Part shown: positions 2,344 to 39,832 of the stretch, piece after piece | Layout: every line of letters starts with the position of its first letter | Position numbering within the stretch: position 1 is the first letter of the stretch | Source of the DNA: a virus | Virus record (IMG/VR): IMGVR_UViG_3300021446_000309 | Length of the DNA stretch: 42,847 nucleotides | Direction: 5' to 3' (one strand) | Program-made: the position numbers and the translations under genes | Notes under the pieces: generated by a model | The model's input: only the letters and a program-made list of their open reading frames with translations | Databases searched by the model: none | Told to the model about the DNA's origin: nothing

Positions 2344-3084
2344 CTACTCGTCCCGTGGGGCGAACGAGACACCCTCGCGCTGCTCGATCCAGTCATCGCG
2401 AGGATAGTGTCCGAAGCGGTCGAACGCGCGGTTGAGCTTGTCCTTCCACCGGCGCATATCGTTCCGGACCACAGCCTTCGGCGCAGTCTCGACGACGCCG
2501 TGTTGGGCAACACGGTCGCGGAAGTCGAACTCCTCTTCCTGTCGAACAGCGGCGAGATCGGTTTGTGACCGACTGGTGTCGAACGGGCCAGCTTCGTCCC
2601 ACGCAGTCGCCGTGAACGCACTGAACTGGCCGGGGAGGTGCAGTCCAGCCTCCGTGCCGACGCGTTGGCCGAGGTCTACGAGTGCCGAGAGGCCGGGCAC
2701 GCCGGCTGCCTTCGGTCGCCCGGCGACCGCCGCAGTATCCTCGTCGCGGAACGGGGCGAGCAGCTGTGCCAGCGAGTCGCTGCGAAGCGGTGGCGCATCC
2801 GCATCAGCGACGGCGATCACGTCGTACTCCGATTCGACAGCGGCGTTGTGGGCGGCGTTGCGGGCCGCGAGCTTTCCCTCCGGTGCTTCGTGTACCTCGA
2901 ACCCGCGTGCTTCGAGGGCTGCCTGCCACGTCGTACACAGCTCCCGCTCGGGCGGTGAGAGTGTAACCCATACCTGTCTGTCTACGGTGATCCCCTCGGG
3001 CGTCGGCTGATTCCCCCATGCCCGGAGGACGGGGAGCATCTCCGGCTCGCGATACGCGGGAACCTGCAAGACAGCGCGGATCAT
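2344..3084 (-). CDS. Glycosyltransferase, GT-A fold (GT2-like)
   Basis: N-terminal VPAYRE, EGKLAARN and YDVIAVADAD (DxD) motifs. Confidence 0.85.
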   Translation of the reverse strand: MIRAVLQVPAYREPEMLPVLRAWGNQPTPEGITVDRQVWVTLSPPERELCTTWQAALEARGFEVHEAPEGKLAARNAAHNAAVESEYDVIAVADADAPPLRSDSLAQLLAPFRDEDTAAVAGRPKAAGVPGLSALVDLGQRVGTEAGLHLPGQFSAFTATAWDEAGPFDTSRSQTDLAAVRQEEEFDFRDRVAQHGVVETAPKAVVRNDMRRWKDKLNRAFDRFGHYPRDDWIEQREGVSFAPRDE

Positions 3085-3344
3085 CGGCGGCGAGAAGGGC
3101 GGCGCGCATCGCTTGAGACGGCGTACAGGCTCTTGCGCCCGTCTCGTGGATGATCGCGGATCGAGAAGTGTTCTGCCGTGGCGTCGAGTTCGGCGGCTTT
3201 GTTCCGGACCGTGCGTTCGGAGAGGCCAGCCCGGTTCACGAGTTCCTGTTGAGTCATCTCGTCGCCGTAGTACAGGAGCGTGTAGATGAGTCCCGCCGAT
3301 GGGGATACATCACCGACCTGTTCAGGGATCGCGAGGGTCGTCAT
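3081..3344 (-). CDS. Winged-helix transcription regulator (MarR/TrmB-like)
   Basis: MTQQELVNRAGLSERTVRNK helix-turn-helix followed by a DGRKSLY wing. Confidence 0.8.
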   Translation of the reverse strand: MTTLAIPEQVGDVSPSAGLIYTLLYYGDEMTQQELVNRAGLSERTVRNKAAELDATAEHFSIRDHPRDGRKSLYAVSSDARRPSRRR

Positions 3345-5060: not shown

Positions 5061-5953
5061 ACGGACGCACCTCGTTTCGTCTCGTAGAGGATCGAGATGG
5101 CTTCCTCGGGAGTCGATCCAGACGAACGAGCGCGGAACGCTCGAACGACTGCAGGATCACGTTCTCGCGAACAGCCGTCGCCGCACAACGTCATCTGCTC
5201 GTGTCCCTGCTTCCGTGCGCGCTGTTCCTCAGTTGTGAGTCCACTCCAGCCGAGTGTTCCCTTCAGTCCGTCATGGGTGATCGACTCCTCCCACTCGCGG
5301 AGCCGTTGGCCGAACTCGGGGAACCGTCCGAGTGTCTTCTGTAACTCGGAGGGGTCGCCGTTCGCGAGACAGCCGCAGTCCGAGATGACACCCGGCATCT
5401 CCCACAGCGGGTTCCGGGGGCACTCCTCGTGTCGGAGGATAATCTCGGCTCGTTCCTTCCGTGAGAGACGATGGGCCGGGTAGACTTCGAGGTGGCGGCC
5501 TACCTTCCGGGCCTTATCGAAGCCGGCGCGGGTATCGGACTCATCGGCTGCAAGACCCATCACCATCGTTGGATTCTCAGCGATGGTTGTGAGCTTCGAT
5601 GCTTGCCGGTCCTTCAGTTCATTCCGGACTTCCTGATGCGCGCCAGCACCCGGTGCGCCGTCGCGTTGCAGCCAGTCGCGGAACGACTCATCCGTGCGTA
5701 GCGTCCATAGTTGGACGTTGTACGTGTCGCACAGCTCCTCGACGTAGAAGCGGTTGAGTGGGACACCGACGCGAGTGTCGAGGTAGATGCCGAGAGGTTT
5801 CTTCGCGAAGTTGCCGCCGCTCTGGTCAGACCGGAGAGCGTCTTTCGTGAGCAAGAACGCAGCCACGGAGTCGATCCCTCCTGAGAGGCTCCAGAACCAG
5901 TCGGGATGATCGCTAACGTGGCCGGGTGCGCGCTTGCGGAAGGTGTCACTCAT
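5057..5953 (-). CDS. PAPS-reductase family / DndC-like PP-loop enzyme
   Basis: SLSGGIDS PP-loop, YLDT, GLAADES, NPLW...SDCGC. Start refined to ATG 5953 (ATGA overlap with the upstream stop). Confidence 0.8.
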   Translation of the reverse strand: MSDTFRKRAPGHVSDHPDWFWSLSGGIDSVAAFLLTKDALRSDQSGGNFAKKPLGIYLDTRVGVPLNRFYVEELCDTYNVQLWTLRTDESFRDWLQRDGAPGAGAHQEVRNELKDRQASKLTTIAENPTMVMGLAADESDTRAGFDKARKVGRHLEVYPAHRLSRKERAEIILRHEECPRNPLWEMPGVISDCGCLANGDPSELQKTLGRFPEFGQRLREWEESITHDGLKGTLGWSGLTTEEQRARKQGHEQMTLCGDGCSRERDPAVVRAFRARSSGSTPEEAISILYETKRGASV

Positions 5954-6714
5954 TCGGACCCACCTCGCTCTCTTACTCGTATTTCCGACGGAAACCAATT
6001 CTGTTGACGCTCAGTGTGCTTGTCGCAGAGCTGCTCACGGCGGCGTTCGGTCGTCCAGTTGACGGTGTGGGTGGCCGCTTGTTCGCAGTTCGTGTGGTGG
6101 CAGGTACTCGCGTCTGCTGGTTCCCCACCGTCGGCAACGATTTGTTGACGGTCGTTGTCCGGGTCGAACTTCGGCGGGACCTCAGCCATGATCTCGCCGG
6201 TGTCGGGGACGTCGAGTTCGTCGGGGATGCCGTCACCTCGACGTCGGAACCGCGACAGATACTCACTGGCCGTCCGATCACCAATGTCCATCAGTTGAGC
6301 GATCTCGTCTCGTCTGCGTCCGCGAACGTACAGCCACGCGGCGACGGCGGGTTTCCCGTCGACGGCGACAGCGACCGGAACACCGTTTCGCACTGGGTGT
6401 CGCTGCATATTCCCTCTGTCTGTGGTCAGATCGCTCCCGTCGAACTCCTCCAGTAAGACCGCAGCAATATCTGCACGATCCGGGTCATCGGCGGTGAACA
6501 TCGCGTCTATGCCGATGACGCGATAGCTACGAACCTCCCACTCAGAATCGGCGTTTCGTGACCGTTTCGCGTAGATCAACAATTCGTCGTCGTCTCGGAT
6601 GATGGGGGCGTGGGTCGTTGGAGTCGCATGATCGCCGCTGAACGTCAACAAATCGTTGAACGTCTCCATCGAAATCGAAGACCGGTCGATTTTGTCTGTG
6701 GAGTGGTCACTCAT
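5950..6714 (-). CDS. HTH DNA-binding protein with C-terminal Zn-finger module
   Basis: RRDEIAQLMDIGDRTASEYLSR HTH, then an ADGG linker, then C-x4-C...C-x2-H. Start refined to ATG 6714. Confidence 0.7.
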   Translation of the reverse strand: MSDHSTDKIDRSSISMETFNDLLTFSGDHATPTTHAPIIRDDDELLIYAKRSRNADSEWEVRSYRVIGIDAMFTADDPDRADIAAVLLEEFDGSDLTTDRGNMQRHPVRNGVPVAVAVDGKPAVAAWLYVRGRRRDEIAQLMDIGDRTASEYLSRFRRRGDGIPDELDVPDTGEIMAEVPPKFDPDNDRQQIVADGGEPADASTCHHTNCEQAATHTVNWTTERRREQLCDKHTERQQNWFPSEIRVRERGGSE

Positions 6715-6967
6715 CGTCAGTATCCTCGTTGTAGTCGCTTGGTGTGTACGATTCGCGAGGTTTACACGCCGCACAGCACAGGCAGTTATCCCGTCTGTCG
6801 TCGCCGGGGGCTGTGCATTTCTCGTAGACGAAGACGTGTGTCGCCTCGTTCCCGCACGGCGACGGTTCGTGGCCCGTCCAGAGCGTACATTCTCGACCGT
6901 ACTCGATCTTCGAGAGTGATACGACGTCGTAGATTTCCGGTGCGCGTTTGATGGTGTCGTCATTCAT
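6707..6967 (-). CDS. Cys-rich Zn-finger protein
   Basis: MNDDTIK start; C...CGNEATH...CCAAC; overlaps both neighbours. Confidence 0.7.
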   Translation of the reverse strand: MNDDTIKRAPEIYDVVSLSKIEYGRECTLWTGHEPSPCGNEATHVFVYEKCTAPGDDRRDNCLCCAACKPRESYTPSDYNEDTDDE

Positions 6968-7088
6968 TGCGATCACTCGGCTTGCTGCCGTCGTTCGGAG
7001 AGACTGCCGTACTGCACTTCCAGCAGTATCCTTCGAGGAGATCGTTTCCAGTGAGCCACTGGCCGCAGTTCCAGCACTCACCGGGCAT
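6960..7088 (-). CDS. 42-aa CxxC...CxxC micro-protein (not in the ORF track)
   Basis: Manual translation MPGECWNCGQWLTGNDLLEGYCWKCSTAVSPNDGSKPSDRNE*; fills the operon gap with overlaps. Confidence 0.75.
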   Translation of the reverse strand: MPGECWNCGQWLTGNDLLEGYCWKCSTAVSPNDGSKPSDRNE

Positions 7089-7239
7089 AGGCGTTCCCTC
7101 CAGTGTTCGTGCAGTCCTCGCAGAACGCGAGGGTCACGATTCCCCGATAGCCACGATAGCTCTCGGTCGTCGCCGGGTCGTCTATCTCGCTTCCACACTG
7201 CTCGCACTGGTACGTCTCCGCTGTGGGCTGGTCACTCAT
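7078..7239 (-). CDS. 53-aa CxxC...CxxC micro-protein (not in the ORF track)
   Basis: Manual translation MSDQPTAETYQCEQCGSEIDDPATTESYRGYRGIVTLAFCEDCTNTGGNAYAR*. Confidence 0.75.
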   Translation of the reverse strand: MSDQPTAETYQCEQCGSEIDDPATTESYRGYRGIVTLAFCEDCTNTGGNAYAR

Positions 7240-8173
7240 CGTCGCGTCCTCCGTGTTGTGTCGTGTCCATGTTCGGTGATCGGGGGGTCACGCCGTCCGT
7301 CGACGCGGCTAACGTCTGTTGCTTTCCATCGGTGAACAGCGGTACTGTGGCCGGATCGTAGCTCAGATACAGCCGTTCGATCCGATCCGAGTTCTCCTTT
7401 GCAGCCGACCGGTTGTATGAGCGTTCGATCACAGTCCTCGCGAGGGCATCAAGCCCCTCCGGTGGGTCTTGATACGATACCATCCAGTGCCCGTCGACGT
7501 TCGCCAGCGTCTCCACGAGGCGGGCGTGGTCGAATGATGGGCCACGGTAGTAGCTGCCGTTTGCCTCGATGTACGGCGGATCGAGGTAGTACAGCGTCTC
7601 TGCGTCTTTGTCGTCGTACCGACCGAGAATATCGGCGTAGTCGAGCGACTCGATAGAGACGCCACGGAACCGGTCGCGAATCTCGATGATCCGCTCCGGC
7701 ATCTGTTGCCAGATACGTGACTTCTGCGGGCCGCGTTGTGGGGTATCTGTCGCGAAACCGGCTCGCTGTCCGTAGCGACCGCTAAAGCTGGCGTACCGGA
7801 GATAAACCCATCTGGCCGCCCGCTCGACGACGTTCTCAGGCCAGCCGTCACCGTTCCTGAACTGATCTGCCCACTCGTTGTAGGTGGTTCGCGAGAACGG
7901 GATGTTCCGCACCCGCTCGGCCAGTGCTTCGGGATGCTCACGACACGCGCGGAAGAACTCGACGATTGCGTCGTCACGGTCGTTGTATATCTCGCACCCT
8001 GACCGTGGTTTGTTGAGCAGGACGCCGGCTGCCCCGCCGAACGGGACGACGAAGTTGTCGTGTGTACGCAGATTCTCAACGATCCACGACGCGAGATAGG
8101 TCTTCGAGCCGATGTAGGGGAATGCGGAGAACGTCGAGCCGCGAGACGAACTGCCTGTGGACTGGTCGCTCAT
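7232..8173 (-). CDS. dam: Dam-like (D12 class) N6-adenine DNA methyltransferase
   Basis: FPYIGSK, VVPFGGAAGV (motif I), YNDRD and YYLDPPY (motif IV). The target sequence cannot be determined from sequence alone. Confidence 0.9.
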   Translation of the reverse strand: MSDQSTGSSSRGSTFSAFPYIGSKTYLASWIVENLRTHDNFVVPFGGAAGVLLNKPRSGCEIYNDRDDAIVEFFRACREHPEALAERVRNIPFSRTTYNEWADQFRNGDGWPENVVERAARWVYLRYASFSGRYGQRAGFATDTPQRGPQKSRIWQQMPERIIEIRDRFRGVSIESLDYADILGRYDDKDAETLYYLDPPYIEANGSYYRGPSFDHARLVETLANVDGHWMVSYQDPPEGLDALARTVIERSYNRSAAKENSDRIERLYLSYDPATVPLFTDGKQQTLAASTDGVTPRSPNMDTTQHGGRDDE

Positions 8174-8544
8174 CGGCTGTCCTCCGCGTATGGGTGGTCG
8201 GTGAGGAGGGTCGCGAGTCGGTCGGCCTCGCGTGCGATGATTTCACCGTGGCACGCTGGCTCGTCCTCGTCGAGTCGCTGACACCAGCACCCGAGCGTCT
8301 GCCCGGCGAGTCCTGCGATCTCCGTCCGGAACGCCGGGTCAACGCGAAGCCGTCGCAAAAACTCCTCGCGGAACAGTGTGAGAGACTCCTCGCGAGTGTG
8401 CGTGTCGAGGGGGTACGGGTTGCCGAGCCACCCACGGTCGCCGATTGGCGTCTTCGTGATGTCACGCCCGCCGGGACCACGCCCGATATAGACGTCGGTC
8501 GAGTCGGCTTTGCAGTGGCCGACCTGTGTCTCGTCGGGAGCCAT
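8170..8544 (-). CDS. DUF4326-family protein
   Basis: VYIGRG...LGNPY...LAGQTLGCWC...CHGEII signature. Start refined to ATG 8544. Confidence 0.8.
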   Translation of the reverse strand: MAPDETQVGHCKADSTDVYIGRGPGGRDITKTPIGDRGWLGNPYPLDTHTREESLTLFREEFLRRLRVDPAFRTEIAGLAGQTLGCWCQRLDEDEPACHGEIIAREADRLATLLTDHPYAEDSR

Positions 8545-10215: not shown

Positions 10216-10868
10216 GATTCTACCTCACGATTATCGTCGTCATCGAAGAATCCATCGGGAGCGTGCGTCTCCCACCAGTCTTCGTCGTATGGATAGTAGC
10301 CCCCGGCGAAAACTTGACCCACTCGTTCATCCGAAAGCTCGTGTTCGACCGAGACGATCAGTGCTTCTGGTTCGGTGTACCACGCAGAGCGTTGTTCCGA
10401 TGGATGCGGATAGAGTTCGCGACGTTCCCGGAGGAGCGTTCGGTACTTCTTGACTGTCTTGTCCGTCGTGCCAGCAATCTCCCGGATAATCCGGTTGACG
10501 ACCACGACATCGACGTGGGGCCTGTCTCGCTCCCGTGCGTCGGCTCGAACCTCGGCAGCAATTGCCGCTACTTTCCGGAAGACCTCGCTGGATCGCTTCG
10601 GTTCTTCTCTATCCGCCTGTGTCTGAGAAACGCCCCCCGGGGGGGACGCCCCAATCTCGTTTAGACGTTTAAGCAGGTCTTCGTTTGACACGTTGGATTC
10701 GCTGGCTCCCTCGTCCCGCAACACCTTGATACGGTCTCGTAGGGCGTTCTCTACCTCGCTTCGGTAGTAGTTCCGAGTGCCGCCGTGGTAGTTCTTCACG
10801 GCTTGCTTGAACTCGTCTCGGAGTGACTCTGCAACTGGGGCCGGCCGAACGGTATTCTCGTTTACCAT
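10212..10868 (-). CDS. RHH plus HTH protein; candidate replication initiator or regulator
   Basis: N-terminal RHH-like (PAPVAESLRDEFKQAV...RSEVENALRD), second HTH (VNRIIREIAGTTDKTVKKYRTLL). Lies directly downstream of an origin-like region. The Rep role is inference. Confidence 0.5.
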   Translation of the reverse strand: MVNENTVRPAPVAESLRDEFKQAVKNYHGGTRNYYRSEVENALRDRIKVLRDEGASESNVSNEDLLKRLNEIGASPPGGVSQTQADREEPKRSSEVFRKVAAIAAEVRADARERDRPHVDVVVVNRIIREIAGTTDKTVKKYRTLLRERRELYPHPSEQRSAWYTEPEALIVSVEHELSDERVGQVFAGGYYPYDEDWWETHAPDGFFDDDDNREVES

Positions 10869-10919
10869 TCTACTGGGAGTTAGTGCACATTGCCACTTAG
10901 CTTTTGCTACCAAACAACC

Positions 10920-11075
10920 GCAAACAACAACTAACTGACAGTATAGTAGTAGTAGTAGTAGAACAATTGATGAGAGAGAGAGAGTATTACGGTAGTGGCA
11001 GTATGTGGTGTTGGTGTGTTACCGACCGCTGTCTGTGGGTGGGGGGTGTGGGGGGGAACCCCCCACCCCCACCGT
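10920..11075. other. Putative replication origin / control region
   Basis: AT-richer non-coding stretch with (TAG)6 at 10944-10961, (GA)6 at 10972-10983 and an imperfect G/C hairpin at 11038-11073. Confidence 0.45.
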
Positions 11076-11170
11076 CTCGCTCAGAGGCGGATAGAAACGA
11101 ACCGAACTTCGCTTGTGGCACTTATCGTGTCACACGAGAAAACTATCCTACCGACCGTCACCGCGTCGTG

Positions 11171-11530: not shown

Positions 11531-11872
11531 AGCTACTGGAACACAAACGCCACGCATACATGAACGTACTGGTCGAAAACCGATACAAAAGGCTTAAACA
11601 CACGACACTGTATGGTACTCGTGGGTCGGTCACACACCGACTCGGGGGACCGCAACATCTCCCGCGCCGCACCCCTCTCCGGCGCAAATCACGCCCCTAC
11701 CCATCCCGCCGTTGCCGGATGGCTCTTGCGTCCCGCTGGCAACGCTCGGACACCCGGCGCTTTTCTCGCCGGCTCGAATCGCACCCATCCGACGAAAGCT
11801 TCAGTCGCGAGGTGGTCGGGGCGTACCACGGTTCCAAATCGAACACCACCCGCATAGTGCTGTTCTCGGCGC

Positions 11873-11952
11873 TTTTTGCCTGTTTACACGCCTTTTAGAT
11901 ACAGGCGTGTGTATATCAGAACGGGACGTGATCCCATGTCTGCCAACGACGA
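11873..11952 (+). promoter_or_regulatory. Repeated promoter module, copy 1 (class A)
   Basis: TTTTTGCCTGTTTAC; TTTTAG at offset +20; ATCCC-ATG-TCTGCCAACGAC with the ATG at offset +63. Confidence 0.8.
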
Positions 11953-12421
11953 CCCCGACGTGGGGACCGAATCCGACCGACGCACCGCCGACCACTCCGC
12001 GACAACACTGGCTGAGTGGCTCGATACCGACGAAACGACCGGACCGACCGACGCCGAACGCCGCGCCCACTACGTCGAGCGCCTTCGCGACCGCTGTGAT
12101 GAGCAGCTCCCCGAGTGTGCGACTACCGGCGTCTGGCCGGTCCACTTCGACCACTGCTTCCGCCGACTCTGCTACGACCGCGCCGTCGGCGGCGACTGGC
12201 GCGAACACGTCGATGGGCGTCCGTTCGTCGAGGCGGCCAGTCTCCGGCTGGTGCAGTCGGCGGCGGCCCATGCCGTCCGACTCCTGTACGACGGCCCGAC
12301 CGCCGCGTGGCGGTATCAGGAAATGTCGCTGCTGTGGCGCGGCGAGATCGAGCCGGCTGACTGCGAGCATATCGACCCGACCGTGGTCCTCGACGAGCCG
12401 ACAACCGGGGGCGACTGCTGA
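11936..12421 (+). CDS. Conserved hypothetical protein (WPxxxDHCFxR...SLxWRG family)
   Basis: WPVHFDHCFRRL...DW.EHV..RP...SLLWRG resembles, from memory, a small prokaryotic family often loosely annotated as acetyltransferase; function unknown. Confidence 0.55.
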   Translation: MSANDDPDVGTESDRRTADHSATTLAEWLDTDETTGPTDAERRAHYVERLRDRCDEQLPECATTGVWPVHFDHCFRRLCYDRAVGGDWREHVDGRPFVEAASLRLVQSAAAHAVRLLYDGPTAAWRYQEMSLLWRGEIEPADCEHIDPTVVLDEPTTGGDC

Positions 12422-12690
12422 TGGCGGAACCTATTGAGCTGATGGGGGAACCTGTTGTCACCGTTGCGAACGACCACAAGGGCAGACCGGGCGACCACAC
12501 GGCTCGGTCTCGGATCGACGAGGGACGACAGACGATCTGTGTCACTACGTCCGGCAACTACCGTCCGGCGGGTGATTGGGAGATCAGAACGGTGTATTTC
12601 GCGTCGGACGGCGAGACGCATATCCGACTCACCAACCCGGAGACCCGGTACAGCACAGACCCACCGGCTGCCTACGGCGTCGAGCTATAG
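12421..12690 (+). CDS. Hypothetical protein
   Basis: 89 aa, TGATG-coupled to the upstream gene. Confidence 0.7.
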   Translation: MAEPIELMGEPVVTVANDHKGRPGDHTARSRIDEGRQTICVTTSGNYRPAGDWEIRTVYFASDGETHIRLTNPETRYSTDPPAAYGVEL

Positions 12691-12724
12691 CCGGCAACCC
12701 GGAGTAGCAGGCTGTTATCGGTGT

Positions 12725-12784
12725 TTTTTGCCTATTTACAACCTACTAAGTGTGTGCGTGTGTAAGTGGGAGGTATGGGTGACA
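12725..12784 (+). promoter_or_regulatory. Repeated promoter module, copy 2 (class B)
   Basis: TTTTTGCCTATTTAC; ACTAAGT at +20; AAGTGGG at +39; ATGGGTGACA at +50. Confidence 0.8.
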
Positions 12785-13266
12785 CAACCCAAACCGACGA
12801 CGGTAACGTCTGGACGCAGCGAACGGTAGACGTCCGGCTGGCGAGCACTGGGCTGATCATCGAGGTACAGCTCCATCGCCTGACGAAGAACAGACACGGA
12901 ATCACGACGCCCGTTGGCCGGCAGAAGGTCGGTCCGTGGGCGTTCGTCCACGTCAACAGCGGGACGGCAGTCGATGTCGTGCGCGGCGACGTCCCCGACG
13001 CCGACGGTCCTGTCCTCGCCTACGTGGGCGATCACTTCGACCGCCACTACTACACCAGCAAACCGCGCGACGGGATGCCCGTAGACGTGTACGAGGCACT
13101 CGTAGAGCGCGACGTGCTGCTGCTCGAAGACGTCGATGGCGGCTGGAGCAACTGGGACGGACGCCCGGAGTGGTCGGAGACCTACATCGACCTGCGCGAC
13201 GCCGAGCCGGTCGATATGACCGGGATCATCGAACAGCGCCGCGACGACGGCGAGGGGGGCCGATGA
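12775..13266 (+). CDS. Hypothetical protein
   Basis: 163 aa acidic protein starting at the promoter-module ATG. Confidence 0.75.
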   Translation: MGDTTQTDDGNVWTQRTVDVRLASTGLIIEVQLHRLTKNRHGITTPVGRQKVGPWAFVHVNSGTAVDVVRGDVPDADGPVLAYVGDHFDRHYYTSKPRDGMPVDVYEALVERDVLLLEDVDGGWSNWDGRPEWSETYIDLRDAEPVDMTGIIEQRRDDGEGGR

Positions 13267-13424
13267 TGGGCGTCCCTGTTGGGCAGAGTGAGGGCGACCA
13301 CCCGGTGACGCTGGGGTGTCGCGAGTGCGGCAGCCGATACGAGACCGACGAGACGATGGGCAACGACTGCCCGGCCTGCGGGTTCGCCCGGTTCCGCGTC
13401 CTCGACGACGGGGAGGAAGCATGA
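13263..13424 (+). CDS. CPxCG-type Zn-finger micro-protein
   Basis: MMGVPV...CRECG...CPACGF; ATGA overlaps on both sides. Confidence 0.75.
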   Translation: MMGVPVGQSEGDHPVTLGCRECGSRYETDETMGNDCPACGFARFRVLDDGEEA

Positions 13425-13747
13425 GTGACTACCTCTACGCGCTCCAAGACCGCGAGCTAACCGACGACGAGGCGCAGATGCTCGCTGACTACGAGCAACC
13501 CGACTGGGCCGCGCGCGACCTTCACGCACGGAGTGTCGCCCCAGTCGTCTACATCGACGGCGAGATCAAGATTCGGTCGCCGCGAACCCTCGAAGGCAAT
13601 GTGACGGTTGAGTGGGCCGACGACGTGATCGGGACGGTCGGCGCTGGCGTCAACTCGCCTCATGAAGCGACAGAGGCGTTCAGAGCCTTCTGCGCCCGGA
13701 TCGAGGAGGCCAACATGGACCGCGATCCGTGGCCGTCGGGACCGTAG
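13421..13747 (+). CDS. Hypothetical protein
   Basis: GGAGG Shine-Dalgarno-like sequence before ATG 13421; acidic. Confidence 0.7.
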   Translation: MSDYLYALQDRELTDDEAQMLADYEQPDWAARDLHARSVAPVVYIDGEIKIRSPRTLEGNVTVEWADDVIGTVGAGVNSPHEATEAFRAFCARIEEANMDRDPWPSGP

Positions 13748-13848
13748 GACAGGCCGCTACCCCTCGGATTCACCCGCACAGGCATCTCACGCCGAGGTTC
13801 GATTCCTTGGGCGGGCTTCGGCGGCTGCGGTGGCCGCCACCTGCAACC

Positions 13849-14481
13849 ATGCCGACCGACGACCATACCGGCGATTCTGCCGGCACGACCGACGCACAGG
13901 ACGATGAACAGACAGCGGCGTACTCGCCGAACACTCACCCCGCGACCGATGTAACGACTATCGTCGTCGATCCAGATGATGTGATCGAGTCCATGCGGCG
14001 CAACGTGCGTGATCGCGATGAACAGCTGACACACGATCTCAGAATCAACCCGCCGCTGGAAGGGGAGAAGACAGCAACGCCGTACATCGCGGAGACGTAC
14101 GGCCGATACCCGCCGGAGATGGACCCCAAACCGGTCCACATCTCTCCGGCCTCGTTCGTCGTCGGTCACGTCTCAGGCAGCCGTCACCCGGACTGGCGCG
14201 ATGCGTGCAGGGTCCCGAGCCGCAACGAGCAGCGATCACTGTTCAGAGACGAGTACGAGCTATACGATGAACACGGCAACCCCCGACCCATGACTGACGA
14301 GGAAGAAGCAGAATGGGAGGACTGGTGGGCTACCACCGTCGAAGTGTGGGAGGACCATACACGTCACGAGATCGAGACTACAGACACGCTGACGCTCGGG
14401 AGCCGAAACCCCTACTACGAGACTACGACGGTCTCGATCCGTCTCACGGACACAGACGACGCGACCACGACCGACAACTGA
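13849..14481 (+). CDS. Hypothetical protein (haloarchaeal type)
   Basis: TIVVDPDDVI...LRINPP...DPKPVHISP; followed by a pyrimidine-rich terminator-like tract. Confidence 0.7.
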   Translation: MPTDDHTGDSAGTTDAQDDEQTAAYSPNTHPATDVTTIVVDPDDVIESMRRNVRDRDEQLTHDLRINPPLEGEKTATPYIAETYGRYPPEMDPKPVHISPASFVVGHVSGSRHPDWRDACRVPSRNEQRSLFRDEYELYDEHGNPRPMTDEEEAEWEDWWATTVEVWEDHTRHEIETTDTLTLGSRNPYYETTTVSIRLTDTDDATTTDN

Positions 14482-14573
14482 CGACCACCGCGTTCCTCTT
14501 TCTCCCGATCCGCTGCCCTACTGACACCAGCCGCCACACACACAATACTGCTATAGAACCCCACTACCGGCTG

Positions 14574-14633
14574 TTTTTGCCTATTTAGAGTGTACTAAGT
14601 AGGTAGGGGGACAAGTGGGGTGCATGGGTGACA
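14574..14633 (+). promoter_or_regulatory. Repeated promoter module, copy 3 (class B)
   Basis: TTTTTGCCTATTTAG; ACTAAGT at +20; AAGTGGG at +39; ATGGGTGACA at +50, identical spacing to copy 2. Confidence 0.8.
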
Positions 14634-15028
14634 TACCCAACGCAGCCGGCGACGCAGAGCAACGGAAGAACATCGTCGTGGACACCCGCGACCGCCTCGC
14701 AGTGATCGAGTCACTCGCGGACACGCCGTTCGGCGGGCTGTTCCACGCTGCCCGCACCGCCCGCACGTATCACAGTAGCGCGGTGGTGCAGGTCCGCGTC
14801 CGCGATGGAGCAATCGAGACGAGCGACCCAGTGATGCAGCGGTCCGGCGAGTCGCTCCGTGGTACTGACGCGTGGGACGGGATGATCTCACTCCCGACCG
14901 AGGCGTTCATGACGGTGCGTTCGGCGCGGAGCCAGATCAGCCACCAACTCCGCGATCTCCAACAGACATACGGGCGCGAGGCACAGCGGGCCAGAGAGGC
15001 TGAGCGCCGCGCGAGCACGAGCCGCTGA
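14624..15028 (+). CDS. Hypothetical protein with C-terminal coiled coil
   Basis: 134 aa starting at the promoter-module ATG. Confidence 0.7.
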   Translation: MGDIPNAAGDAEQRKNIVVDTRDRLAVIESLADTPFGGLFHAARTARTYHSSAVVQVRVRDGAIETSDPVMQRSGESLRGTDAWDGMISLPTEAFMTVRSARSQISHQLRDLQQTYGREAQRAREAERRASTSR

Positions 15029-15303
15029 CCGACACCGACCCACCGACAACCGTCTTCTTCTCACGAGCCTACCCGATCAGCAGCGCCGACGCCCCCCTAC
15101 TCGTACCCTCTCGGCAGGACGTCGAGCGGCGACGGCTACCCCCCGTCCAGCCGGGGGCAGGTGACGTGCCCGTGGCTGGTACGGCGAGCAGTCGCGTCAG
15201 TAGGGCCACAGTAGGTAGCCGACAGGAGCCGGGGTAGACCTCGGGCTGGTGATCTCACAGGCTCCTATGCAGGTTCTTGCGCGTAAGAAAAGTCGTCTGG
15301 TAG

Positions 15304-15603
15304 TTAGTCGAACGGCCCGGTCTCGACGTTGACCCGCGGCAGTCGCTCGGACACGTCCAGTACCTCCCGTGGTAGTGGCCGGCTGCCGTCGTCGAGCCGA
15401 TCATGGACAGCCGCGCCAGTCGGGCAGGCGTGAGGCATCCCGCCGTGCCAGCCGATGACGTGACCGGGCGGCAGTACGTCGATGACTGCGGGGTGGCCGT
15501 GTGGTGGGACGCTCGGATCGTCCTCGGCGTCGTCGTAGTCGCCCAACCTCGCTTGCTCCTCCGCGCCGAACTCGTCGAGCGTCGTGGCCGCGCCGAAGGC
15601 CAT
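15304..15603 (-). CDS. Small protein with PIP-box-like motif
   Basis: 99 aa; QARLGDY; coupled to the upstream gene. Confidence 0.6.
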   Translation of the reverse strand: MAFGAATTLDEFGAEEQARLGDYDDAEDDPSVPPHGHPAVIDVLPPGHVIGWHGGMPHACPTGAAVHDRLDDGSRPLPREVLDVSERLPRVNVETGPFD

Positions 15604-16055
15604 CAGATCGACAACCCCGGCAGCCGTCGGTTACTGTGGACCTCGCCGACCCTCTGCGAGTAGTCGTCCACCCGATTGATCTTGTCGATGGTGTCGTCCA
15701 CGCAGTCGGCGCAACTGAACCACAGCCGCCGTTGGTCTGCGCCGAGCGAGTATACGAGCACTCGATCCGCAGTCTCGTCACAGCCGCCCGCTCGACACGG
15801 GCGGTTCGAGACGTTGAACCGGACTGGTGCGTCGCCGTGGTGAGCGGCCTGCGCGTGATGGCGCACGATCTCGGCCATCGTCCAGTCGTCCGGGGCGCGT
15901 GCGATGCACTCCGCGAACAACGCGGCGCGGTTGTTCCACGCGAACGGAGGCGTCTCCGGTGGGTCCCACGGGGGCCACTTCTCGCGGTCTGCGAGCCGTT
16001 CGTTTCGATTCACTTCGTCGCCGTTCCCCTCCGCGGGGGCGTCGTTGGCAGACAT
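15603..16055 (-). CDS. Zn-finger protein
   Basis: MSANDAP start at the promoter module; CRAGGC...CADC. Confidence 0.7.
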   Translation of the reverse strand: MSANDAPAEGNGDEVNRNERLADREKWPPWDPPETPPFAWNNRAALFAECIARAPDDWTMAEIVRHHAQAAHHGDAPVRFNVSNRPCRAGGCDETADRVLVYSLGADQRRLWFSCADCVDDTIDKINRVDDYSQRVGEVHSNRRLPGLSI

Positions 16056-16118
16056 GGGATTACCTCCCGTCAGTACCCATGCACGGCTACCCCTAAAGGG
16101 TGTGTAAACAGGCAAAAA
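16039..16118 (-). promoter_or_regulatory. Repeated promoter module, copy 4 (class A)
   Basis: Reverse complement TTTTTGCCTGTTTACAC...CTTTAG...ATCCCATGTCTGCCAACGAC; ATG at +63 as in copy 1. Confidence 0.8.
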
Positions 16119-16135
16119 GAACCGCTAACGGTCGT

Positions 16136-16570
16136 CTACTGCTCTGACAGCCGGAGCAGGAACACGACTCGCCCAGTCCGTTGCGCGACGTACGCGTCCT
16201 CGACCCGGAACGACCAGCCGCGTTCGTCGCGAATCGGGCCGAAGTTCATGCCGGCTGTGGTCGTCTCGACGCGCAGTAGTCGCGTCTCGGAGACTACTCC
16301 TCCCTCGTCGTTCTGGCTCGTCTCTCCGACCGCGCGGTAGTGCTCGACTTGGCTCACACTCTCGAAGCTCGCGGCAAACCGCTCGAATCGGGAGTTCGCC
16401 CCACGCGCCGCGAGTGTTCGCTCCAGTCGGCTATCGTCGATTGTGTGATCGACGAGCTTTGTTCGCGTCGGACAGCCGTCCTGATGTTGTTCCGGCCCCG
16501 CTTCCGTCACGGGATACTCCTCGCCACAGTCTGCACACTGGATTTGCATGGTGGTGCTATTGTCGGCCAT
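16136..16570 (-). CDS. Zn-finger protein
   Basis: CADC...H-x3-C near the N-terminus; start refined to MADNS. Confidence 0.7.
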   Translation of the reverse strand: MADNSTTMQIQCADCGEEYPVTEAGPEQHQDGCPTRTKLVDHTIDDSRLERTLAARGANSRFERFAASFESVSQVEHYRAVGETSQNDEGGVVSETRLLRVETTTAGMNFGPIRDERGWSFRVEDAYVAQRTGRVVFLLRLSEQ

Positions 16571-16611
16571 CAGTTCGATACCTCCACACTGCACTGCGTC
16601 GTACTGCGTCG

Positions 16612-16686
16612 GTTGACAGACATGGGTATGCTACCCACCCGTACATAGACTCACAAGCACCTAAAACCAACACAAACGGCAATAAA
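16612..16686 (-). promoter_or_regulatory. Repeated promoter module, copy 5 (diverged class A)
   Basis: TTTATTGCCGTTTG; TTTTAG at +20; CCC-ATG-TCTGTCAAC at +63. Confidence 0.6.
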
Positions 16687-16833
16687 CACCGGTTTAGTGG
16701 TCATACGCGGTACACCGGGTGCAGTGTGATACGGTGGGTTCTCTCCCGGTGTTCTGTGAGCACACCCAGCCGGTTCGTTGGTATAAATGAGCGGGGGCGT
16801 ATGTTTTTCCGGTATCGGGGATACAGTGCTGGT

Positions 16834-25229: not shown

Positions 25230-25266
25230 CGGCAGATTGCGCGGGGTACTACGCCGAACGCTTTTG
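25230..25266 (+). promoter_or_regulatory. Structural-operon promoter: CGGCAG element plus BRE/TATA
   Basis: GGCAGATT at 25231 and CTTTTG at 25261. The same 30-nt spacing recurs at 27795/27825, 30099/30129 and 32862/32892. Confidence 0.6.
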
Positions 25267-27554: not shown

Positions 27555-27572
27555 AGCCCCTTCGTTTTTTGC
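27555..27572 (+). terminator. Pyrimidine/T-tract after the capsid gene
   Basis: GCCCCTTCGTTTTTTG just after the stop; may double as the TATA for 27596. Confidence 0.5.
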
Positions 27573-39238: not shown

Positions 39239-39472
39239 CTATTTGCGTCGTGTCGGGGTGGTGACGGAGATTGCATCGCCACTCAGTTCGTTCGCTCGCT
39301 CGCGAAGTTCCTCAGCCTGTGCTTCTGTGATCTCGTCGAGTTGGATCGCGGCTTTGAGTCCGGTGTCGATTGCGGCTGCGAAGCCATCGACCTCGGGGTA
39401 TCGGTCCTCGACGGCGGCGATCAACTGCTCTCGTTCCGGTGTGACCCGGATGGTTGTGCGGTCGGATGCCAC
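39239..39472 (-). CDS. Ribbon-helix-helix regulator
   Basis: RTTIRVTPEREQLIAAV...FAAAIDTGL; first gene of the operon; GTG start. Confidence 0.6.
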   Translation of the reverse strand: MASDRTTIRVTPEREQLIAAVEDRYPEVDGFAAAIDTGLKAAIQLDEITEAQAEELRERANELSGDAISVTTPTRRK

Positions 39473-39832
39473 ACTCTAATGTATGCACAGGGGGTGAAGA
39501 ATCTGCCGGTAGTGGGGGAAAGCCAGTGATCGGAGGGGTCGTCAGGGCGGGATTCCGGCTCGATTCGTGCCGGTGGTGGTGTGGTGGGGTCGTGATGGGC
39601 ACGATTCGTGCATACGCGTATCTCGATAATTCTGCCGGAAGTGAATCGCGGGCGGGGCGAATCGTATGCACGGGGCGTGGAGCCGTGACAGTTCCCGTCT
39701 GACTATGTGACTGAGAGTGCGACGATCCCTGAGCGCAAACCTACAGCGCCCGCTCACCGGGTATCAAGCACCGCGAAGAAGCCGCAGTCCCTCCCGACGT
39801 CGAGAAGATGGCCGACTACCGACGCCCCGTGC

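Follow-up and report, generated by a model that had tools for sequence, protein, structure and literature searches.

The window, a 42,847-nt stretch of DNA recorded as IMG/VR virus record IMGVR_UViG_3300021446_000309, contains five intergenic modules that share a 14-bp box and a TATA-like box at a fixed distance from it. We propose, with a probability of about 0.7 as judged from the sequence, that these modules constitute a virus-specific archaeal promoter family that drives a block of accessory genes. Most likely, they are comparable to the intergenic repeats of halovirus HF2. The anatomy and orientation of the modules are conserved in a relative, in which substitutions avoid the blocks that the modules share.

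Anatomy of the modules

The box TTTTTGCCTRTTTA occurs exactly four times in the window, at 11873+, 12725+, 14574+ and 16118- (modules M1, M2, M3 and M4, respectively). No further site was found in the genome at up to three mismatches; the shuffle expectation is 0.03 sites at ≤2 mismatches and 0.45 at ≤3. A fifth, diverged copy at 16686- (M5) reads TTTATTGCCGTTTG, and differs from the box either by five ungapped mismatches or by a one-base insertion in the T-run plus a one-base deletion after GCC. This copy retains the register, with TTTTAG at +20 and the ATG at +63. Five spacing-conserved modules had been claimed in a first-pass annotation of this DNA, and they were recovered here as four exact copies and one diverged copy with the same register and the box at +20.

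All five modules are intergenic and oriented toward the next gene, and all have a TATA-like box at +20. They fall into two classes, in which the start codon is at +63 (class A) and +50 (class B), respectively. In class A (11873+, 16118- and 16686-), (C/T)TTTAG at +20/+21 is followed, after 37 nt, by CCC-ATG-TCT-G(C/T)C-AAC. The gap between box and block is exactly 37 nt in all three copies though the sequence of the spacer varies. Class B (12725+ and 14574+) has ACTAAGT at +20, AAGTGGG at +39 and ATGGGTGACA at +50. This division agrees with the two classes described in the first-pass annotation. In each of the five modules, CGG is located three bases 5′ of the T-run. As read from the sequence, T-tracts recur at 0, +10 and +20, a spacing of one helical turn.

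The modules are conserved blockwise: the cores are identical at 14 of 14 positions, but only about half of the positions match in the 22-nt spacers that separate TATA box and leader. M1 and M4 are the two longest inverted repeats of the genome, together comprising ~108 nt, and exact identity runs between modules are short (≤21 nt). Comparison of 65 gene fronts from -12 to +21 identified two pairs as clear outliers: A1/A2, the first genes behind M1 and M4, with 30 of 33 positions identical, and B1/B2, the first genes behind M2 and M3, with 23 of 33. Most pairs matched at ~11 of 33 positions.

Scans of public viral, metagenome and genome collections with the module pattern yielded single matches only, in low-GC DNA (19-46% GC) and without further copies. 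These were treated as chance matches: they are single-copy, and tblastx of L007-L009 against the window gave no match.

Conservation in a relative

A search with A1 led to a relative of the window, ENA contig L011 (20.7 kb) and the identical Logan contig L012. The source runs are SRR7639399 and SRR6651935, with the ENA assemblies ERZ27300281 and ERZ27230148. Over ~15 kb, L011 is 88-93% identical to the window. Site and orientation are unchanged for each of the five modules, as are the identity and order of the genes behind them. In the four exact modules, the 14-mer was altered only at the R position of GCCTRTTTA, and this in two of the four; the box of M5 was unaltered. The TATA boxes were likewise unaltered at positions shared between paralogs, and the starts and first codons were untouched. 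Substitutions were concentrated in the spacers: in M1-M4, they occurred at 13 of 254 paralog-conserved positions and 15 of 104 paralog-variable positions (Fisher p=0.0046). Whole-module identity was 84-98%, which is not above that of the neighbouring genes. Thus, it is individual blocks that are constrained, as they are in the HF2 repeats. Both M1 and M4 of L011 have an A-to-G change at +15, a hint of gene conversion that is not significant by our own estimate.

Divergence between the window and L011 is greatest in 10869-11170 (65% identity). One arm of a 32-nt inverted repeat, 11075-11106, lies inside this stretch and the other, 10597-10628, lies in the neighbouring 218-aa gene (75% identical).

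Predicted promoter architecture

The ordinary promoters of the genome have a recurrent GAACGCTTTTG-type box whose T-rich hexamer ends 22-28 nt before the ATG. This distance is the geometry of leaderless haloarchaeal mRNAs. In class B, CTAAGT ends 23 nt before the ATG, within the range of the ordinary promoters. For class A, the distance from the end of the box to the ATG is 37 nt, implying a leader of ~10-14 nt, which in M5 would be GGGTA-N3-TACCC. The GAAC-type B recognition element of the ordinary promoters has no recognisable copy in any module, which fits promoters that need a factor bound just upstream. Overall, the first-pass description of the modules as promoters with a common upstream regulatory element stands in silico: the modules are intergenic and co-oriented, class B has ordinary promoter geometry, the sites are kept and the blocks are constrained. 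We infer promoter activity, start sites, a binding factor and a terminator role for the modules.

In the proposed mechanism, GCCTRTTTA, at ~-45 to -37 of the predicted start site, is the probable binding site of a shared viral or host factor, and the TATA-like box lies at +20. The initial transcribed region would be class-specific. Class B would give rise to a leaderless mRNA starting at ATGGGTGACA, and class A to an mRNA with a ~13-nt leader (GGGA-N5-TCCC) followed by ATGTCTGYCAAC. The T5-T6 run probably also stops transcription arriving from upstream.

Runs of at least five T are very rare in this genome: 11 occur in 42.8 kb, counting both strands, and four of these are in the modules. The T-runs of M2, M3 and M4 are located 34, 92 and 17 nt, respectively, after a co-directional stop codon. 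Elsewhere, the T-run TTTTTTGCCGCG at 27565 follows a 402-aa gene and, in L011, TTTTTGCCGCG follows a 99-aa gene at the end of the leftward unit (L011 13153). Intergenic termination in Haloferax volcanii is signalled by a stretch of T, and in vivo the sequence T5C ended 95% of transcripts (PMC7237163). Because T-runs are rare, follow stop codons and have this haloarchaeal precedent, we consider that the run probably has the further effect of shielding each unit from its upstream neighbour. The terminator idea is consistent with M5, whose T-run is broken (TTTATT) and which lacks an upstream gene on its strand.

Several points weigh against the proposed promoter family. First, TTTTTGCC resembles the TATA flavour of two ordinary promoters (CTTTTGCCG and GTTTTGCCG), and the box may thus represent an additional promoter upstream, not the site of a factor. 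Second, Pfam searches for a DNA-binding regulator returned only weak helix-turn-helix (HTH) matches, in 3081-3344 and 5950-6714, and several small zinc ribbons, none of them convincing; other small HTH or zinc-ribbon proteins are encoded at 13266-13424 and 7078-7239. Third, the TATA assignment and the start sites are predictions from the sequence. Fourth, the class A leader hairpin is no better than those of shuffled sequences (z -0.6 to -1.2). Fifth, the constraint test draws on 28 substitutions in a single relative. Sixth, a hairpin before the T-run is significant only at M1 (z -2.5; others z 0.8 to -1.1). Finally, M1 keeps a perfect T5 without a co-directional upstream gene, which weakens the terminator role unless the 315 nt before M1 are transcribed.

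The 315-nt stretch before M1 (11558-11872) is non-coding and may be a non-coding RNA gene. It is 92% identical in L011, with substitutions that lack codon periodicity, and has a fold z of -2.9. A TTAAAC box is located near 11594, and the stretch ends in the hairpin (z -2.5) that is followed by the T-run of M1.

It is also conceivable, if rather unlikely, that the 14-mer is no factor-binding site but combines an oligo-T terminator for the upstream unit with a second TATA-like box (TTTTTG or TRTTTA), generating tandem promoters or insulated units without a dedicated regulator. Consistent with such a composite, two ordinary promoters use (C/G)TTTTGCCG as a TATA-like box, T-runs are otherwise nearly missing from the genome and are placed after stop codons, and TTTTTGCCGCG occurs at two gene ends that have no module behind them (window 27565 and L011 13153). 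The broken T-run of M5, which has no co-directional upstream gene, is also as expected of a terminator, whereas the intact T5 of M1, likewise without an upstream gene, is not. A bare terminator would not need GCCTRTTTA, yet this sequence is invariant, bar R, in the four exact modules and their orthologues. Moreover, the offset to the second box is fixed at 20 nt in 10 of 10 copies.

A second, distinct promoter class would be marked by CGGCAG(A/G/T)(T/C)T, which is found ~30 nt before the TATA-like boxes of the promoters of the structural operons, at 25231, 27795, 30099 and 32862. This sequence also occurs at ~39506-39514 on the minus strand, before the minus-strand gene 39239-39472.

Genes behind the modules

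The module-led proteins have only their first 4-11 residues in common. According to BLASTP, A1 and A2 share only residues 1-11 (MSAND.P..G) and B1 and B2 share nothing past MGD, in agreement with the first-pass statement that the genes are unrelated past the first codons. A homologue of A1 encoded on a JGI contig is 56% identical, lies within an operon and has the N-terminus MSDTEQ. The B1 family has 47 representatives, ~150-aa proteins with an invariant GGW..W.GRPE.S motif; none of the 12 sequences read starts with MGD, and the one member inspected lies within an operon. As the bodies are unrelated and homologues elsewhere have other N-termini, the shared first codons are part of the DNA module and not of the protein families. 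In the predicted structure of B1 (12775-13266), the mean pLDDT (predicted local distance difference test) is 90, and that of residues 1-10 is 58. By this model, the shared first codons sit in disordered, tolerant N-terminal tails.

All three class A-led first open reading frames (ORFs) end in CTGATGGC (12418-12425, 15600-15606 and 16567-16573), where the stop of the first gene and the ATG of the second overlap; this arrangement suggests translational coupling.

Searches for the function of the cargo in Pfam, PHROGs and PADLOC returned nothing usable and speak neither for nor against the host-takeover or anti-defence roles suggested in the first-pass annotation. The B1 model had no match in Foldseek, and the best match in VIA-align (Z 5.0; acyltransferase-like, with acyl-homoserine-lactone synthase and GNAT-like folds) was below a meaningful level. 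A2 was found only in the window genome and in L011. B2, the 144-aa protein and the DUF8009 protein had no tblastn match in plasmids or phages. The coordinates of the modules, of the units behind them and of other repeated gene fronts are collected in Table 1.

Table 1. Modules, module-led units and other gene fronts in the window
Feature	Coordinates	Strand	Description
M1, class A	11862..11969	+	CGG, T5 run 11873, TTTTAGA 11893, ATG 11936, ~11 shared codons (MSANDDP...)
M2, class B	12717..12795	+	CGG, T6 run, ACTAAGT 12745, leaderless-type ATG 12775 (MGDT...)
M3, class B	14566..14644	+	T5 run 14574, ACTAAGT 14594, ATG 14624 (MGDI...)
M4, class A	16022..16129	-	T5 run 16118, CTTTAG, GGAGGT, ATG 16055 (MSANDAP...); inverted partner of M1
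M5, diverged class A	16612..16698	-	TTTATTGCCGTTTG at 16686, TTTTAG +20, ATG 16623 (MSVN...)
M1 unit	11936..12690	+	A1, 161 aa (11936-12421), and overlapping 89-aa gene (12421-12690)
M2 unit	12775..14481	+	B1, 163 aa; 52-aa zinc ribbon; 108-aa gene; 210-aa DUF8009 gene with its own upstream block
M3 unit	14624..15028	+	B2, 134 aa
M4 unit	15304..16055	-	A2, 150 aa (15603-16055), and overlapping 99-aa gene (15304-15603)
M5 leader ORF	16570..16623	-	17 codons; stop overlaps ATG of the 144-aa gene (TGATG); same length in L011
M5 unit cargo	16136..16570	-	144-aa CxxC protein
Shine-Dalgarno-plus-start block, three copies	6696..8177	-	GATGAGYGACCA..CCACAG, MSD(Q/H)xT; starts 6714, 7239, 8173
Class C gene front	13792..13918	+	tRNA T-arm-like sequence, CACCTGCAACC, ATG and first ~15-23 codons; not at this site in L011

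Recombination at gene fronts

Three rearrangements distinguish the window from L011, and none of their breakpoints is in a TTTTTGCC module. The first involves the block GGAGGAC-N5-GATGAGYGACCAGYCCACAG (~23-34 nt), which heads three consecutive genes (MSDQST, MSDQPT and MSDHST). The D12 methyltransferase gene, 7232-8173, is missing from L011, and the junction there joins the upstream half of the start block at 8173 to the downstream half of the gene at 7239. This hybrid indicates a crossover inside the repeated block. In the second, 5071-6715 is replaced in L011, and the right-hand breakpoint is exactly at ATG 6714. In the third, 13255-13919 is replaced. The window has the 52-aa zinc ribbon, the 108-aa gene, a 100-nt intergenic block and the DUF8009 gene with 23 extra N-terminal codons; the L011 counterpart encodes another zinc ribbon, of 61 aa, and an 89-aa gene that directly adjoins a DUF8009 gene of 189 aa.

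The 100-nt intergenic block of the window together with the first 15 codons (MPTDDHTGDSAGTTD) is 76% identical to the front of ORF45 (MTTDDHTGTDAGTTD) of Haloarcula californiae icosahedral virus 1 (HCIV-1); the remainder of HCIV-1 ORF45 is unrelated to the window gene. The junction of the methyltransferase indel and this block in common with HCIV-1 together indicate, at the level of sequence comparison, that crossovers do take place at repeated or shared gene fronts in this lineage. Although the region is plastic, no recombination event was caught at the TTTTTGCC modules themselves.

The first-pass annotation had interpreted the modules as an integron-like or moron-like accessory platform in which the shared block serves as a recombination handle. 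Neither platform fits. No integron integrase or other recombinase family was found in Pfam scans of the 61 predicted proteins, and no attC-like repeat was seen at the 3′ ends of the module-led units. Unlike promoterless integron cassettes, each unit has its own promoter-like module, and the units lie on both strands. The integron was rejected on these three grounds: no integrase, no attC and a promoter-like module for each unit. The moron was rejected since L011 contains every module-led unit and the units do not deviate in base composition (GC 0.60-0.68). As for the handle, gene content and order are the same behind all five modules of L011 and the breakpoints lie elsewhere; such invariance, here in the only relative found, was what the first-pass annotation had itself named as contrary to its proposal. 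A handle is thus unproven and unsupported at these modules, though plausible as a mechanism in this lineage, and the principle holds nearby, at the methyltransferase indel and the block common with HCIV-1.

In PeSL-like terms, this idea, to which we give a low probability, is that the unit of terminator, promoter and first codons serves chiefly as a handle for homologous recombination, through which accessory genes are swapped, inverted, deleted or captured, as in PeSL-like mobile regulatory cassettes. Such cassettes have precedents in T4-type phages (PMC2839356, PMC4122927) and in halovirus HGTV-1 (PMC3950731), and the idea is compatible with promoter function rather than exclusive of it. Within each class, the similarity passes the ATG into 4-11 codons and then ends abruptly, and the 17-codon leader ORF of M5 looks like a module placed before a gene that has its own start. 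Repeated fronts do cross over in the lineage, as seen in the 8173/7239 hybrid and in the replacement that ends at ATG 6714, and a third front block, in common with the unrelated virus HCIV-1, stands ahead of unrelated bodies. The A-to-G change at +15 in M1 and M4 of L011 adds a hint of gene conversion that falls short of significance. Against these points stand the conserved content and order at all five modules and the three breakpoints located outside them. Moreover, neither a deletion between M2 and M3 nor an inversion between M1 and M4 was seen in the comparison of the window with L011. The exact identity runs of ≤21 nt and the lack of a consistent stem-loop also speak against a handle, and the blockwise conservation points to selection on function and not to recent copying.

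A bolder version, which we likewise hold to be improbable, is an archaeal counterpart of the PeSL: a portable, insulated 'gene front', including the start and the first codons, that is grafted by short-homology recombination. In detail, and just as tentatively, an oligo-T stop, a factor site, a TATA box and a fixed leader and start would be placed onto any gene with a tolerant N-terminus. If true, one upstream box combined with two leaders would set two expression modes, and the methyltransferase indel, the 17-codon ORF of M5 and the front block of HCIV-1 would be footprints of the same process.

Finally, the modules are very improbably neutral leftovers of recent local duplications without a function of their own: the copies lie within 4.8 kb and M1 and M4 share ~108 nt, but this reading was rejected on account of the blockwise conservation, the exact spacing, the substitutions that avoid the shared blocks and the unrelated gene bodies.

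Some further features lie in the rearranged regions. The segment 5071-6715 encodes a PAPS-reductase-like protein and a 254-aa protein with a weak HTH match; both genes are replaced by a single 346-aa gene in L011, with breakpoints at gene borders. The 61-aa zinc ribbon of L011 (L011:11325-11510) has a weak match to Lar restriction-alleviation protein, and its C-terminal GDLTGTTDAQADKQTAA matches the N-terminal tail of the DUF8009 protein of the window. Upstream of the DUF8009 gene, 13792-13830 resembles a tRNA T-arm plus acceptor (CGAGG-TTCGATT-CCTTG-GGCGGGC). The corresponding element of HCIV-1 has compensatory changes in the stem (CGTGG...CCACG). Of the T-arm-like element, 23 nt are identical to a tRNA-Gln gene of a Microcystis phage; ARAGORN calls no tRNA. 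The element could be the remnant of an att site or a tRNA-like processing signal.

Comparison with known systems

The promoter family proposed here most resembles the class I and II repeats of HF2 (Russ, Pfeiffer & Dyall-Smith 2021, PMC8707807). In both cases, the repeats are virus-specific, exclusively intergenic and of two classes. A conserved motif precedes the TATA box and a further conserved block at the start site, TATA box and start site being predictions in the case of the modules. Position, orientation and motif are kept in relatives, here in the one relative, L011. In the HF2 class I repeats, an alpha motif located upstream is dispensable for basal activity, beta contains the TATA box and gamma is at the start site (PMC8707807). 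All nine HF2 repeats drove a reporter, and their places are conserved among haloferacalesviruses; virus-encoded temporal regulators have been proposed to target them (PMC8707807). Such regulators may likewise bind the modules. In sequence, the HF2 repeats and the modules of the window are not similar. In contrast to HF2, the two classes of the window have a single upstream box in common and diverge only after the TATA box, and conservation extends into the start codon and first codons. In addition, no tailed-virus genes were recognised in the window genome, a circular 42.8-kb element, and its modules are known from sequence alone.

The modules also resemble the PeSLs of T4-type phages (Arbiol et al. 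2010, Comeau et al. 2014), terminator-promoter units that extend from an upstream stop to a downstream start codon and mediate the shuffling of ORFans (PMC2839356, PMC4122927). In both systems, a composite of upstream stop or terminator, promoter and start codon precedes ORFans in a plastic region, and has been proposed to be a regulatory unit and a recombination site at once. In HGTV-1, a PeSL-like motif of a TATA box plus an inverted repeat precedes most ORFs of the left arm (Sencilo et al. 2013, as summarised in PMC3950731). The window differs from the PeSL systems in having no consistent stem-loop, only five copies and no rearrangement at a module in one close relative.

A third likeness is to the halosphaeroviruses SH1 and PH1, in which repeat-mediated deletions and replacements have breakpoints at ORF starts (Porter et al. 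2013, PMC3622292). Short border repeats and breakpoints at gene starts also characterize the window/L011 comparison, at 6714, 7239/8173 and 13255-13919. The repeats of the methyltransferase indel (~23-34 nt) are longer than those of SH1/PH1 and are themselves a family of ribosome-site-plus-start blocks.

The modules do not establish a new category, the principle being already present in HF2, HGTV-1 and T4-type phages. They provide a clean candidate promoter family, a 14-bp box with two alternative downstream halves, for an otherwise unreadable, uncultured haloarchaeal virus. In the comparison with L011, cases of genes gained, lost or replaced at repeated starts in archaeal viruses are resolved to the base. 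The front block common across virus families bears on how mosaic genomes are built.

Genome context and other features

The window is a closed contig whose last 55 bases are identical to its first 55, giving a unit of 42,792 bp, and represents a circular 42.8-kb haloarchaeal virus-like genome. Its GC content is ~63%, and identical copies were present in two independent assemblies. A leftward arm runs from ~11557 and a rightward arm from 16834, and the modules lie in the 5-kb block between them. The left arm is a DNA-modification arm, the right arm is a structural arm and the block that separates them consists of small accessory genes. Across the 11-17 kb module block, GC is 0.60-0.68, like that of the remaining genome.

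Few proteins have a family match: the D12 methyltransferase, the PAPS-reductase-like protein, an HNH protein, DUF4326 and DUF6610 proteins, a Kelch protein and one PHROG 'virion structural protein'. DNA similarity to known viruses is confined to a 103-nt stretch in common with HCIV-1. Searches for relatives with the 742-aa and 455-aa proteins returned nothing or the same genome only. ARAGORN detected no tRNA in the window and Rfam gave one sub-threshold microRNA match only. A sigma-70 promoter scan was set aside as not relevant to archaea.

Finally, the Kelch-repeat gene (32920) and the next gene, of 327 aa (33984), both start with ATGGCACAA (MAQ.RVP), and 20 of 33 positions of their fronts are identical.

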